IMG/VR virus record: IMGVR_UViG_2778261176_000001
Source: a virus
Lineage: Duplodnaviria > Heunggongvirae > Uroviricota > Caudoviricetes
Reading direction: 5' to 3' (one strand)
Length of the DNA stretch: 8,787 nt
Position numbers and translations under genes: made by a program. The notes under the pieces are model-generated. The model ran no database searches and was not told the DNA's origin. It was given only the letters and a program-made list of their open reading frames with translations. Of the stretch, positions 1-8,671 are shown in pieces; the stretch's first letter is position 1, and the number at the start of each line of letters is the position of its first letter.

Positions 1-68
1 TCTGAGGTGAGCATATCACCTCTGTTCAGGTGGCCAAATTCAGTGTGCCACTTCATTACGAGTTCCAT
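1..68 (-). CDS. Hypothetical phage protein, 5' end only (continues past window start)
   Basis: Minus-strand ATG at 66-68 preceded by AGGAG with 5-nt spacing; reads MELVMKWHTEFGHLNRGDMLTS... in frame to position 1 with no stop. Lies just downstream of the terminator-like hairpin at 78-102. Too short for the ORF track. Confidence 0.35.
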   Translation of the reverse strand, partial: MELVMKWHTEFGHLNRGDMLTS

Positions 69-77
69 ATACACTCC

Positions 78-102
78 TGCAATAAAGGGGCCGAAGCCCC
101 TT
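78..102 (-). terminator. Intrinsic terminator/attenuator hairpin after the 111-aa gene
   Basis: Minus-strand RNA: AAGGGGC-UUCG-GCCCCUU (7-bp stem, UUCG loop) followed by UAUUG. Sits between the stop at 119 and the next RBS. Confidence 0.5.
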
Positions 103-118
103 GTCGGATTCGCGAGGC

Positions 119-454
119 TTACACGCCCAGTTCTTTACGCTTATCTGCGATCTTCTCGCGGAGCGTTTCGGCTTTAGCGTTATGGTGTGGCTTCTCGTTA
201 AAGAGCAATTCGTACTCTTCACGGAGCTTATCCAGTTCACCATCATCTGACACATCATTGATGATTTTGGTGCTGGTTGCTGCCATTGACACCTTTCCTG
301 CAACTTTTGCTTTTGCCTGTCTGGCTGCATCGTTAACAGGTTCCAGTGCGCTACCAGGCTCACCTTCGTATTCGATTTCTGCCCCCTCCGGCCACAGAGT
401 GTTATGGATATGAGAGAGGCGCAGAACGCGGTATCTTGGTTTCTCACCTGACAT
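119..454 (-). CDS. Hypothetical phage head-associated protein (about 111 aa)
   Basis: ORF-track ORF 119..463 starts at GTG with no SD. The internal ATG at 452-454 is preceded by AAGGTGA with 5-nt spacing, immediately after the TAA stop of the upstream gene, so I take it as the start (MSGEKPRYRVL...). Charged C-terminal half. Function unknown. Confidence 0.55.
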   Translation of the reverse strand: MSGEKPRYRVLRLSHIHNTLWPEGAEIEYEGEPGSALEPVNDAARQAKAKVAGKVSMAATSTKIINDVSDDGELDKLREEYELLFNEKPHHNAKAETLREKIADKRKELGV

Positions 455-464
455 CGATATCACC

Positions 465-902
465 TTAACCAGTTACTTTTGAGCGGATCGGATACGGCGT
501 ATTGGCATCAACATCAAGGCTGATACCAGCAGAGAATTCGCCAGCCGTTAGTGGGCCAGTTGCGACGGAGTAGTTAACACGCAGATATCGCTGAACACCG
601 GCAGGCACCTTTGCAGAAACAACTCGTTTACCTGCTGTCAGGGCGGTCTTTGCCAGTGCGCCACTATCATAAATAGTGGTCCATGAGCTGTTATTCTCAC
701 TCGTCTGCAACTGGATGTTTACAGTTGCATCACCGCTTGCCGCGGCGGCTGTGTTAACCAGCGCCCAAAACTCAAGCGGGTAACCCACGCCGATATCACG
801 ACGTTTTCCGTCAATTGGACCGAGATCGATTACGTCAGTAGAAGCCGCGGTATTCGTAACCGCCTGAGCTTCGGAGAACATCAACAGTTTGTCGGTGATC
901 AT
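465..902 (-). CDS. Hypothetical phage structural protein (145 aa), possible head decoration or accessory protein
   Basis: ATG start with GGAG SD at 7-nt spacing; Thr/Ser/Ala/Gly/Val-rich composition; directly downstream of the capsid gene. Functional call is by position only. Confidence 0.6.
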   Translation of the reverse strand: MITDKLLMFSEAQAVTNTAASTDVIDLGPIDGKRRDIGVGYPLEFWALVNTAAAASGDATVNIQLQTSENNSSWTTIYDSGALAKTALTAGKRVVSAKVPAGVQRYLRVNYSVATGPLTAGEFSAGISLDVDANTPYPIRSKVTG

Positions 903-4869: not shown

Positions 4870-4941
4870 AATTATTACCAATTTAACCACATATGATTTA
4901 TTTATCGTAGAAGGTTGACATTTAACGCGTGAATTATTACC
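4870..4941. repeat. 10-bp direct repeat AATTATTACC (4870-4879 and 4932-4941) flanking a TTGACA hexamer (4915-4920)
   Basis: Exact 10-mer twice within an AT-rich intergenic stretch; TTGACA matches the sigma70 -35 consensus but I found no convincing -10 at 15-19 bp spacing on the plus strand. Candidate promoter/operator region. Confidence 0.35.
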
Positions 4942-5273
4942 TTTCAGGTAACTAAAGAGCTCATTCTGGTTACTAACCTGACTGGCTTGTCGTTAAATTA
5001 AACAGGTGGAGTGAGCTTTTATTTTGAGCAGTACGGCGTATGGCACATGCGCCGATAGCGGTCTGGATACGTTTAAGGGGCACCCTCCCTTGCTCGGGCA
5101 AACGAACCAGGTAGCCAGAATGTGCAAGTCGAGCGGTTTTATTCCGCGCACGGGGATTCACCATCCCGGCGATTCGGTGTGACGCCTCGGAAGAGACGAG
5201 GGTACAACGATGAGAGCATTTATGGAGCCGCGACAAAGTGTGGCGCCTTAACAGGCTAAGTGCTCTCAGCGTT

Positions 5274-5350
5274 GTGGCATTAGCTCAGTCGGACAGAGCA
5301 ACCGCCTTCTAAGCGGTTGGTCGCAGGTTCGAATCCTGCATGCCACGCCA
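5274..5350 (+). tRNA. tRNA-Arg (anticodon UCU)
   Basis: Hand-folded cloverleaf: acceptor GTGGCAT/ATGCCAC, D-stem GCTC/GAGC, anticodon stem ACCGC/GCGGT with loop CTTCTAA (anticodon TCT), 5-nt variable loop, T-arm GCAGG-TTCGAAT-CCTGC, discriminator G, encoded CCA. All stems are Watson-Crick. Confidence 0.9.
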
Positions 5351-6061: not shown

Positions 6062-7537
6062 TTAATCATAGGGATCGTAATCTGTGATGGCCTTGCCTTG
6101 CTGGTTCTGCTGCCCGGGAATTCGCAGACGCTTCGACACAGGGAAAGCAAACGTCAGCAGTAGCGCATCGCCTTTACCCGGCGAGCGCCCAAGCCGCTCC
6201 TTGATATCTTCCTTCGGTTCGATAACGATTTTACCGTCCACGCGAACTTTGTACTCTGCCGCCGACAGGTCGTCCGCTGTTTCCTGGTCATCCAGCATGC
6301 CGCCCAGCCTCAGCCATGTCTTGCATGAGTTGAACATCTCCCCACGCTTGTTAAGCATCTGCGGGTCAGTAGACGCGCCACCGAACGGAACAAGTTGCCA
6401 TGTGCGCCCCCAACCGTCACCGATTGACTTCAGACCGGTACCGTAACCAAAGTCGATGAACACTGCGTCAGCCTGATACAGGTCTTCAAAGTCAGCGATA
6501 CGCTTCGCCATAATCAGATCGTCGGTAGTCTTGTTGCCAGTCCACAGCACCTTACTGTGTAGCCCCTGCCGCAGGTATATCACCGCGTCATCAACGCCTG
6601 AATATGCCGGGTCAACACCGATTATCACCGGAGCATGCGCCACCTGCGCAGCGGTTACCACCCGTTTCATTGCCTCATCAGTAAGACCGGTAGGGATAAA
6701 CTGCAATTCAGATGCATCAGGGAATATGCCGCGCACACGGATTTTAACGAAGTCGCTGTCTTCCCCGTAGTCATCAACCCATTTCTGCAACTGCTGTTTG
6801 TTAGTGCCTTCCACCGTCCGGCTGTCAATCTGCGCACACTTCCAGCGGTGTTTATATTTGCGGAAACATTCGCGGAAACGCCCGGTGTTACGTGTAGGGT
6901 TTCCGAACGCCACCCAGATAATCTCAGTGTCTTCGTCCGTAAGCGCACCCTCAGCAACTTCCCATACCAGATCCGCAATGTTCGACGCTTCGTCGAAAAC
7001 CACGATGATGCGTTTGCGCTCGTTGTGTAGTCCGGCGAATGCCTCAGTGTTGTGCTCAGACCAGGGGATTGCGTCAGCTCGCCACCGCTTGTCGTGCCCA
7101 GGATCATTGCTGTACATCGCGGTAGCGGTACAGGTAAACCAGTCTTTCGTGATAGCAAGGTTCGACCACTTGATAATTTCCGGCCAGGTCTTCGTTCGTA
7201 GCTGGTTGTCGGTGTTGGCGGTCACCACGACCTTACAATCCTCGCAAGTGGACATGCCCCAGTTGATCAGCATTGAGATGAATGCGGATTTACCAATACC
7301 GTGACCAGAAGCGCGTGCCAGCATAAGCGGCTGATAGCGCGTCTCTGGATTCTGCAGGTGATCACGTATCTCTCGGAACGCATCAGCCTGCCACTGACGT
7401 GGGCCGGTGGCATGTGCCAGTTCAGTCCCCTCTTCCCCCCACGGGAACGCATAGAGGGCATAGCCAAGCGGATCGTGAGTGAACCCTGCAATATCCTCGA
7501 TCAACTGCTCTTCAGGAGATAACGCTGTATCTGTCAC
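6062..7537 (-). CDS. terL: Terminase large subunit (ATPase + nuclease)
   Basis: 491-aa ORF; Walker A-like SGHGIGKS, Walker B-like IIVVFDEAS, C-terminal acidic nuclease-like motifs (IIGVDPAYSG, FIDFGYG); GTG start overlaps the terS stop (GTGA) with AGGA upstream. Confidence 0.85.
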   Translation of the reverse strand: MTDTALSPEEQLIEDIAGFTHDPLGYALYAFPWGEEGTELAHATGPRQWQADAFREIRDHLQNPETRYQPLMLARASGHGIGKSAFISMLINWGMSTCEDCKVVVTANTDNQLRTKTWPEIIKWSNLAITKDWFTCTATAMYSNDPGHDKRWRADAIPWSEHNTEAFAGLHNERKRIIVVFDEASNIADLVWEVAEGALTDEDTEIIWVAFGNPTRNTGRFRECFRKYKHRWKCAQIDSRTVEGTNKQQLQKWVDDYGEDSDFVKIRVRGIFPDASELQFIPTGLTDEAMKRVVTAAQVAHAPVIIGVDPAYSGVDDAVIYLRQGLHSKVLWTGNKTTDDLIMAKRIADFEDLYQADAVFIDFGYGTGLKSIGDGWGRTWQLVPFGGASTDPQMLNKRGEMFNSCKTWLRLGGMLDDQETADDLSAAEYKVRVDGKIVIEPKEDIKERLGRSPGKGDALLLTFAFPVSKRLRIPGQQNQQGKAITDYDPYD

Positions 7538-8130
7538 TGATTACAATCCTGACGTTCTTTGAGTCGCTTCCTGGCTGCTGCTATGCGATCAGCAATTGTC
7601 ACATTCACATTAACATCCAGGCGTTCTTTGAATGCATTGACATCGACGTGCTTACCAATCAGCTCAAGGTTCTTCACCTTGTCAGGCCATTTAATTTTTT
7701 TGAGGATTGTCTCTATCGAATCCTCGTTCATGTTCATGATGGTCGATGACAGATCAAAGCCGCTAAGCGTAGTGCGCCAGATTTTCGGCCACTCGCGGAT
7801 TGGCTTAAGGCTCCCATCGTCGTTGAGGATATCAATCACGTCCATCTGGTCGATCTCCACCAGGCGCATGAGAACGTAATCAGCACTGACACGCATTCGT
7901 TTGTTGCGCTCTTCCATCAGCTCGGCAATCCGTTTTTGAATGCGTTCATCGCGCATCATGACACTGGCTTTAACTGCCGCTGTATTTGGGGAGAATCCTG
8001 CGTTAATCGCTGCCTGAGTCTGGTTTTCAGGCGTTTTGATGTATGACTGGCAATAAGCCTCCTGCATTGCTGTGAGCGGCTTAAATTGCGTTGATTTGCG
8101 TTTATAGGTTTTAGGTTCAGCAGGCATCAT
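7534..8130 (-). CDS. terS: Terminase small subunit
   Basis: Directly upstream of and overlapping terL. The N-terminal region (KPLTAMQEAYCQSYIKTPENQTQAAINAGFSPNTAAVKAS) has the LTxxQxxFxxxY pattern of small terminase subunits as recalled from memory. The ORF-track start at 8208 is a TTG whose first 26 codons would translate a terminator hairpin and tandem repeats; I place the start at the ATG pair 8125-8130 (GGTGG upstream). The ATG at 8137-8139 is also possible. Confidence 0.7.
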   Translation of the reverse strand: MMPAEPKTYKRKSTQFKPLTAMQEAYCQSYIKTPENQTQAAINAGFSPNTAAVKASVMMRDERIQKRIAELMEERNKRMRVSADYVLMRLVEIDQMDVIDILNDDGSLKPIREWPKIWRTTLSGFDLSSTIMNMNEDSIETILKKIKWPDKVKNLELIGKHVDVNAFKERLDVNVNVTIADRIAAARKRLKERQDCNQ

Positions 8131-8138
8131 AACCACCA

Positions 8139-8169
8139 TGGTAATAGTTACCGTTGTGGTAATAGTACC
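8139..8169. repeat. Tandem near-palindromic repeats GGTAATAGTTACC / GGTAATAGTACC (10-bp exact direct repeat TGGTAATAGT, 18 bp apart)
   Basis: Read directly: 8139-8152 TGGTAATAGTTACC, spacer GTTG, 8157-8169 TGGTAATAGTACC; each unit has inverted arms GGTA(A)/(T)TACC. Located between a minus-strand terminator and the terS start. Candidate operator or TerS-binding (cosB/pac-like) sites. Confidence 0.55.
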
Positions 8170-8170
8170 A

Positions 8171-8199
8171 TGCAAAATAAAGCCGCCATAGTTGGCGGC
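8171..8199 (-). terminator. Intrinsic terminator between the 70-aa gene and terS
   Basis: Minus-strand RNA: GCCGCCA-ACUA-UGGCGGC (7-bp GC-rich stem) followed by UUUAUUUUG. Confidence 0.6.
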
Positions 8200-8204
8200 A
8201 GTAT

Positions 8205-8417
8205 TCAAAGTCCATCAAATTCATCGTAAAAACTCTCGTCAAGATACCCTTCCCATTTACCGCGAATGAAAATTACATCCTCGCCGCAAGGGTGCTGACT
8301 GTCGATAACTATATCCCTCCTGGCGCAACCATACTTATGCATGAGAAATTTAACCTCTTTCGGAAAATTTGCTGAGTTATCTCTCATATCTTCAAGGTCG
8401 TAGCGTATTTTTGGCAT
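8205..8417 (-). CDS. Hypothetical small protein (about 70 aa), AT-rich
   Basis: ORF-track ORF 8205..8438 starts at a GTG formed by the palindrome itself; the ATG at 8415-8417 is preceded by GAAGGTG and is the more likely start (MPKIRYDLEDM...). AT-rich relative to neighbours; function unknown. Confidence 0.5.
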   Translation of the reverse strand: MPKIRYDLEDMRDNSANFPKEVKFLMHKYGCARRDIVIDSQHPCGEDVIFIRGKWEGYLDESFYDEFDGL

Positions 8418-8426
8418 AACACCTTC

Positions 8427-8438
8427 GTGACATGTCAC
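8427..8438. repeat. Perfect palindrome GTGACATGTCAC, copy 2
   Basis: Exact second copy of the 12-bp palindrome seen at 5977-5988; it contains the TGA stop of the upstream Cys-rich ORF and lies about 10 nt upstream of the 70-aa ORF's ATG. Confidence 0.8.
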
Positions 8439-8671
8439 ACTATTAATTTCGTTTCATGCCAGCCTTTAGTCACCCAGCATTGCGAGTCACCATTACACGG
8501 GCATGAATTAACTGGAACTCTCTCGCCGCACTTACCGCAACGTTTTCTGCTGATCGATTTTATACGCCCGCGCACGCGTGCATCATCCTGGCGGATCAGT
8601 AACGCTATATACTCACCAAATTCGTAAGGCGCACGCCCGGGGCGACGCGTGGCACAGTTACTCTCCAGCAT
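8435..8671 (-). CDS. Hypothetical Cys-rich small protein (78-92 aa), possible zinc-ribbon
   Basis: ORF-track ORF 8435..8713 starts at GTG without SD; the ATG at 8669-8671 is preceded by AGGAAA at 5-nt spacing. C-terminal CGKCGERVPVNSCPCNGDSQC (CxxC...CxC...C) suggests a metal-binding ribbon; Arg-rich. GC-rich, unlike the adjacent 70-aa gene. Confidence 0.45.
   Translation of the reverse strand: MLESNCATRRPGRAPYEFGEYIALLIRQDDARVRGRIKSISRKRCGKCGERVPVNSCPCNGDSQCWVTKGWHETKLIV

Follow-up and report, generated by a model that had tools for sequence, protein, structure and literature searches.

What does the short DNA segment in front of the small terminase gene terS do in the 8,787-nucleotide stretch of phage DNA analyzed here (the window): does it encode the N-terminus of the terminase, mark the origin of packaging or control the gene? 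In a preliminary description, a strong terminator, two copies of GGTA(A)CTATTACC and a pair of ATG codons had been read on the minus strand, and all of these are indeed present there, the order on that strand being the end of a 77-aa ORF, hairpin, T-tract, GCATGGTACTATTACCACAACGGTAACTATTACCATGGTGGTTATGATG and terS (Table 1). Two functions had been suggested for the repeats, packaging recognition by analogy to lambda-type phages, or an operator for terS-terL. The operator alternative is favoured by the palindrome family to which these sequences belong, by their conservation and by their orthology to annotated sites in phage epsilon15; as judged from comparative sequence evidence, the 'repeats' in front of terS are two adjacent repressor-type palindromes, a gene switch that had already been annotated, and not a packaging site.

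The window derives from a phiV10/epsilon15-like (Uetakevirus) prophage of Escherichia coli. Phages phiV10, TL-2011b and other E. coli phages are 97–99% identical to its terS upstream region, and the terS region was found in approximately 500 of 5426 complete E. coli genomes. Past terS the gene order is terL and then the portal/head operon, and the immunity region is absent from the window itself. The 77-aa ORF upstream of terS is missing from phiV10 and TL-2011b, where an 8-codon remnant, MHDEFD(G/V)F*, is left of it. TerS was assigned to Pfam Terminase_2 (E = 1e-29) and matched the SF6 G1P structure 3ZQP (E = 6e-7), so that by homology it is SPP1/SF6 G1P-like and not of the lambda Nu1 type. 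An NCBIfam search of TerS, the 77-aa ORF and the gp49-like protein returned no match, and TerL had no sequence match in the PDB.

Table 1. Features of the terS control region and related elements in the window (positions count from the first letter of the window)
Feature	Coordinates	Strand	Remarks
terS, 197 aa, MPAEPK...	7534..8127	-	true start ATG 8127-8125
Upstream ORF, 77 aa	8205..8438	-	PHROG 1541, function unknown, moron-like
Intrinsic terminator (predicted)	8174..8199	-	GCCGCC-AACTAT-GGCGGC (8199-8182) plus T-tract TTTATTTT (8181-8174)
Candidate extended -10 element, TGgTACTAT	8162..8170	-	TG 8170-8169, hexamer TACTAT 8167-8162; inferred
Repeat copy 1, GGTACTATTACC	8169-8158	-	shares 10-nt core with copy 2
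Repeat copy 2, GGTAACTATTACC	8152-8140	-	shares 10-nt core with copy 1
Operator O1, ATTACCacaacGGTAAC	8147..8163	.	17-bp palindrome, 1 mismatch, epsilon15-type repressor operator family
Operator O2, ATTACCatggtGGTTAT	8129..8145	.	weaker second palindrome, 1 mismatch
Third operator copy, GTTACCtgaaaGGTAAT on minus strand	4936..4952	.	upstream of portal/head operon

The hairpin begins 6 nt past the TGA stop of the 77-aa ORF and is a GC-rich stem-loop followed by a U-tract, as in intrinsic terminators. It was picked up by a terminator scan (8199-8182), and its RNA fold of −16.2 kcal/mol (z = −4.9) was equalled in 0 of 200 shuffles. As written, the stem has 6 G-C pairs and a 6-nt loop, and in the scan and the fold 7 pairs and a 4-nt loop. 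In the epsilon15 record the orthologous hairpin (39646-39672) is labelled 'rho-independent terminator', and the hairpin is conserved behind several differing upstream sequences. We regard it as a convincing intrinsic terminator, at which termination of transcription is predicted.

Regarding the repeats, the two copies share the exact 10-nt core ACTATTACCA, 18 nt apart, but as a bare direct repeat they can be explained by chance (a 10-mer recurring within 30 nt is present in 16% of shuffled windows). A different unit, the 17-bp palindrome ATTACC-N5-GGTAAT, is significantly enriched: allowing up to 2 mismatches, the whole window contains 3 matches with 1 mismatch each versus 0.18 expected, and 0 of 200 shuffled windows reached 3 matches. 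Two of the three, O1 and O2, are in the terS upstream region. Both have the TTACC/GGTAA core arrangement with a 5-bp gap, and their right halves, GGTAAC in O1 and GGTTAT in O2, differ from GGTAAT at one position each. The repeats as first described are thus mis-phased, and GGTA(A)CTATTACC is a junction of adjacent palindromes, not a repeat unit: copy 1 is composed of a -10-like element and the left half of O1, and in copy 2 the right half of O1 is joined through a 1-nt linker to the left half of O2. Relatives have GTTAC, GATAC, GATAG or GGTAT where copy 1 has 'GGTAC', and no half-site is conserved there. O2 shares bases both with the Shine-Dalgarno sequence GGTGG (8137-8133) and with ATG 8130-8128, the first of the pair.

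To compare relatives, 51 distinct haplotypes of the terS upstream region were collected from Escherichia, Salmonella, Citrobacter, Klebsiella, Erwinia, Buttiauxella and others. Their diversity came from IMG/VR scans with diverged TerS queries, as the first scan had yielded nothing but 99%-identical copies. In O1 the TTAC and GTAA cores were invariant in all 51 haplotypes, while each of the five spacer positions takes 3–4 different bases and the outer bases vary; fixed half-sites around a free spacer are, on comparative grounds, the signature of a protein-binding palindrome. The linker between O1 and O2 is T or A and has a length of 1, 2 or 3 nt among relatives. O2 is kept in most relatives and is degenerate or absent in L019 and the L117 type. 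All relatives, including the L117 type (GTTACC), share a single operator specificity, the TTACC-N5-GGTAA core, together with a Rep homologue.

This palindrome belongs to a family that is annotated in epsilon15 (GenBank AY150271.2 / RefSeq NC_004775.2), where the site in front of terS and six others are marked 'protein_bind: repressor', and all seven are ATTACC-N5-GGTAAT. O1 is the positional and sequence orthologue of 'protein_bind 12..27, repressor, lysogeny', located just before terS, and the third copy in the window (4936-4952) is orthologous to the 'repressor' site 2931-2947. These two sites and the hairpin thus have counterparts in epsilon15, whereas O2 and the overlapping -10-like element are unannotated in epsilon15, unlike in our reading of the window. 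The 'repressor' label rests on the depositors' annotation and on comparative inference.

Scanning of whole genomes gave 7 perfect and 5 one-mismatch sites in epsilon15 (cumulative shuffle means of 0.00 for perfect and 0.03 for ≤1 mismatch), 1 perfect and 9 one-mismatch sites in phiV10 (0.005 and 0.065, respectively), the same set of site positions in SPC32H, and 8 sites with ≤1 mismatch in 18.6 kb of an E. coli prophage (0.06 expected by shuffle) that is 99.7% identical to the window as measured over 601 bases (window 7900-8500). Each phage genome has 8–12 copies of the motif, at operon starts and around the repressor gene: sites precede terS, the portal operon, the tailspike/antirepressor region, the lysis operon and a replication-late gene. 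In the E. coli prophage, and likewise in phiV10, epsilon15 and SPC32H, they are found on both flanks of the repressor gene. Three perfect sites were counted past the 3′ end of this gene, and the rep-gp39 intergenic region holds two sites with one mismatch and one with two mismatches. Two or more of these flanking sites overlap the -10 element or spacer of canonical promoters.

A Rep homologue (60–100% identity) and the same site layout were present in 45 of the 49 long loci examined; the two loci shown without a Rep match have only ~5–8 kb of DNA upstream of terS, too short for the immunity region. Wherever a locus was of sufficient length, the sites thus came with a Rep homologue. No sites were found upstream of terS in non-epsilon15 backbones whose TerS is 65–75% identical to that of a Samsonia prophage (L014). 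Since related terS genes of other backbones lack the motif in front of them, we assign it to the regulatory backbone of the epsilon15 type, not the terminase.

Conservation also extends beyond O1, in a block reaching 8–9 nt upstream of it. The pattern TG-n-TA-n-TAT is kept in 45 of the 51 haplotypes, the other 6 carrying the element 2 bp further upstream, and the variable positions of the block are exactly its 'n' positions. With TGn directly 5′ of a TAnnnT hexamer, it has the sequence of a sigma-70 extended -10 element, and it survives without the terminator and with unrelated upstream DNA (L005, L007 and L193). The last two bases of TACTAT are the first two of O1. The same register is seen at the leftward promoter that adjoins the gene for the repressor (TTGACA-17-GATTAT in epsilon15, TTGACA-17-AATTAT in E. 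coli, 10/12 in the sigma-70 scan), in which the final AT of the -10 element is the first AT of its operator. Since the conserved element shares its register with this canonical -10, we infer a promoter in front of terS. Conservation and register are what support this call; the pattern is not rare, TGNTANNNT alone having 10 occurrences in the window. A two-hexamer promoter scan found nothing at terS, as expected because such a promoter lacks a -35 element. We also considered the TGnTAnTAT block as a half-site for Rep, but the fit was poor, positions 2 and 5 of GGTAAT being variable there. A repressor-controlled extended -10 promoter would then drive terS-terL from a predicted start near 8155, with O1 spanning roughly −8 to +9 and O2 covering the leader and the ribosome-binding site.

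We consider it likely, from these comparisons, that the element is the control region of a repressor-controlled, two-gene terS-terL operon in an epsilon15/phiV10-like temperate phage. The terminator (8199-8174) would stop transcription that enters from the moron ORF and the early-right genes before it, thereby insulating terS. Directly past it, a weak sigma-70 extended -10 promoter, TGgTACTAT, is proposed, whose -10 hexamer would run into O1 (ATTACC-N5-GGTAAC), and after the 1-nt linker O2 would cover the ribosome-binding site. Both operators would be members of the 17-bp palindrome family found before every operon and flanking the repressor gene. In the lysogen, the prophage repressor (Rep/gp38 type, the homologue of phiV10 gp40 and epsilon15 gp38) bound to O1 and O2 would block access to the -10 region and to the transcription start, so that the terminase stays silent; upon induction, removal of the repressor (by the antirepressor Ant in SPC32H) would allow the promoter to fire. 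Rep of SPC32H is reported to bind palindromic sites as a tetramer supplying two DNA-binding dimers, and Ant to remove Rep (as summarised in PMC9638917). Two adjacent palindromes would suit such a Rep because its tetramer offers two DNA-binding dimers, and SPC32H, with its Rep/Ant system in which an antirepressor disassembles the repressor tetramer, shares this set of motifs, one of its sites being located 20 nt in front of terS. The assignment of Rep as the probable binder of O1 and O2 comes from annotation, genomic distribution and promoter geometry.

In epsilon15-like phages a single repressor motif guards all operons, that of the terminase genes included, so that silencing of late functions in the lysogen is apparently direct and not only via an early-to-late cascade. 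Phage P1 C1 and mycobacteriophage L5 gp71 are likewise single immunity repressors with many dispersed sites that silence late as well as early functions directly. The P1 operators and L5 stoperators are asymmetric, and the stoperators are orientation-dependent elongation blocks inside operons. The likeness is therefore in the one immunity repressor with many scattered sites, whereas the sites of the window differ in being palindromes placed at operon starts and overlapping promoter elements. This architecture is already implied by the epsilon15 record; O2, the promoter register and the conservation statistics are added detail, with no new principle.

The palindromes might also be bound by a Cro-like protein or some further regulator of the immunity region. 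Operators for a protein other than Rep (a Cro-like protein, the gp49-like protein encoded just upstream or a late activator) are an alternative that we consider improbable. The sites precede every late operon, most of them without a strong sigma-70 promoter, a conserved regulator gene (PHROG 536, gp49-like) is located directly upstream of terS in most relatives, and the 'repressor' label in epsilon15 may be purely bioinformatic. On the other hand, the sites flank the repressor gene, at least two of them overlapping the -10 or spacer of promoters in classic repressor geometry, and a protein at O1, at roughly −8 to +9, would repress and not activate. In addition, L005, L007 and the L193 type keep O1 and O2 without the upstream gp49-like gene.

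Control at the RNA level, in which the half-sites fold into a nested hairpin hiding the Shine-Dalgarno sequence and AUG of terS, is quite unlikely. In the readthrough RNA (8172-8115), the left half of O1 is predicted to pair with GGUGGU and to bury the AUG (−16.9 kcal/mol, z = −2.6), but any two palindromes lying side by side will produce such pairing automatically, and RNA from the predicted transcription start had no significant structure (z = 0.19). RNAalifold with 24 haplotypes gave −4.86 kcal/mol with a covariation term of −0.11, and the variation was not compensatory (GGTTAT versus ATTACC, with spacers changing independently). With so weak a consensus and essentially no covariation, a conserved RNA structure in the terS leader was rejected. 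Moreover, with respect to the nearest transcribed operon the motif is found in either orientation, for instance in the leftward-operon region beside the repressor gene.

As for packaging, the palindromes might be recognized by TerS as part of a pac site, similar to the R sites of lambda cosB or to SPP1 pacL. The pacL boxes of SPP1 are located upstream of gene 1, the position immediately 5′ of terS fits, the TerS of the window is related to G1P of SPP1/SF6, and there is a general likeness to cosB R and pacL in that short repeats adjoin the small-terminase gene. Erwinia phage Midgardsormr38, whose terS is related to that of the window at the DNA level, packages by a headful mechanism (PMC7317114), for which reason the window may likewise have a pac site close to terS. 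Nothing, however, points to the O1/O2 palindromes as that site, and we regard this disfavoured reading as very unlikely. The cosB R and pacL repeats are unique to the packaging origin and bound by TerS, whereas the motif of the window is genome-wide and immunity-linked, with 8–12 copies per genome at every operon start and three copies on each side of the repressor gene. Related TerS proteins in non-epsilon15 backbones have no such sites upstream, the L117 type has lost O2 with a still near-identical TerS N-terminus, and the sites travel with the Rep homologue and not with TerS. The packaging-recognition function raised in the preliminary description is thus not supported, given the copy number of the motif, its absence upstream of related terS genes elsewhere and a TerS that is G1P-like (Terminase_2) and not of the lambda Nu1 type. 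Neither the ZX5 nor the PAS61 paper contained operator or DNA-end data, and the start positions of phage records are annotators' choices. A dual use, with O1-O2 as repressor operators in the lysogen and a pacL-like box for TerS during lytic growth, would mean that loss of immunity exposes the packaging origin and switches on the terminase at once; we hold this to be very doubtful as well, the motif being dispersed over the genome and unlinked to TerS.

The remaining possibility, that TTG 8208 is the real start of terS, with hairpin and repeats coding for additional N-terminal residues, is hardly credible. The ORF-track start, TTG 8208-8206, overlaps the TGA stop of the 77-aa ORF (8207-8205) and is directly followed by the terminator. 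From there the long frame reads ...HGTITTTVTITMVVMM, rendering the hairpin and repeats as TTTVTIT as had been described. This frame is open for 27–29 codons in E. coli and many Salmonella haplotypes, and the long form (~224 aa) is annotated in phiV10 RefSeq, VB_ST_E15, PAT1 and PGAP E. coli genomes, while the records of epsilon15, SPC32H and TL-2011b use the short form. Among relatives, however, linker indels of 1–2 nt shift the upstream frame, and in about ten backbone types it is closed by a stop within 1–19 codons with no alternative start. Differences between the window and VB_ST_E15 in the extension were mostly non-synonymous (by reading, no formal count). Comparison of the repeats with the upstream codons among relatives, which had been proposed as a check, hence gave invariant half-site cores in the 51 haplotypes and a broken upstream frame, in agreement with the earlier view that the extension from TTG 8208 is non-coding.

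Regarding the ATG pair (8130-8128 and 8127-8125), the first ATG is lost in relatives, which read ATTATG, ACGATG or AACAATG, and both the E. coli and the Salmonella types have the conserved GGTGG 5 nt ahead of ATG 8127. Frame breakage and conservation mark the 27 codons that precede this ATG as regulatory DNA and not protein. The element in front of terS is, accordingly, an orthologous copy of an already annotated regulatory element, to which a start-codon correction is added, and this annotation fix is the main value of the analysis: long-form records add ~27 spurious residues to TerS and should be corrected. The records of phiV10 and of PGAP have no operator or terminator features, the coding sequence running through them, and records that translate through the terminator and two operators start terS at an upstream TTG or ATG.

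In every relative, pairs of operators (17-bp palindromes) whose starts lie exactly 62 bp apart were found at two separate places, one on the 3' side of the repressor gene, the other before a replication-late gene (see table for epsilon15 and for L261, a closely related E. coli prophage; such pairs also occur in the loci L181, L188, L193, L200 and others). The two operators at terS, on the other hand, are only 18–20 bp apart. That the other pairs keep a fixed spacing of 62 bp suggests that the tetrameric repressor loops the DNA or binds the paired sites cooperatively.

A second motif, with the consensus CATATGTGGTT(T/A), recurs in the late operons. It lies 30–45 nt downstream of each of the portal, tailspike and lysis operators; at the replication-late operator it is found a short way upstream. 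None was found at terS. Allowing up to two mismatches, 9 matches were found in phiV10, compared to 4.1 expected. In late operons other than that of terS, this motif may serve as a conserved element of the leader or as one close to the promoter.

Positions of the features in the window, in related genomes and in public records
Feature	Sequence	Position	Strand	Remark
Operator pairs, 62 bp	L261	2500/2562, 5605/5667
Operator pairs, 62 bp	epsilon15	32554/32616, 35906/35968
Second motif, copy CATATGTGGTTA	window	4884-4895	minus
Second motif, CATATGTGGTT(T/A)	phiV10	3308, 20921, 24739, 35116
Second motif, CATATGTGGTT(T/A)	epsilon15	2988, 24751, 35953
77-aa ORF (PHROG 1541)	window	8205-8438	minus	insertion relative to phiV10 and TL-2011b
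Near-perfect palindrome TGTGACATGTCACG	window	8426-8439	minus	overlaps stop codon of gp49-like 'transcriptional regulator' gene
tRNA-Arg (anticodon TCT)	window	5274-5350	plus	between terL and portal operon
Long terS form	phiV10 NC_007804.2	41..715
Long terS form	E. coli NZ_CP048920.1	1566637..1567311
Long terS form	VB_ST_E15	2..676
Long terS form	PAT1	23156..23827

At the position of the 77-aa ORF, phiV10 and TL-2011b retain only an 8-codon remnant (ATGCAT...GATGAATTTGATG..TGA, MHDEFDGF*), which has its last codons in common with this ORF, and Klebsiella phage ST512-KPC3phi13.3 carries another ORF with the same ...DEF... tail. The spot flanked by the regulator gene and the terminator appears to be a moron slot. 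The palindrome at the end of the regulator gene, which is kept among relatives from E. coli, Salmonella, Citrobacter, Klebsiella phage, Scandinavium and Buttiauxella, resembles a pair of CRP half-sites, but its spacer is 4 bp instead of the 6 bp of CRP; it could be a further regulatory site or else a recombination junction.

Public annotations conflict regarding the start of terS: the long form of 223–224 aa reads through the terminator and the operators, whereas a form of about 197 aa is used in the RefSeq records of epsilon15, SPC32H and TL-2011b. The top phage-database match to the window was PP350014.1 ('phage PH444', 99.2% over 601 bases), an unannotated record of 114,913 bp, about three times a Uetakevirus genome; its assembly may be chimeric or include host sequence. 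The tRNA-Arg gene, oriented antisense relative to the structural genes, is also present in SPC32H and in L261.
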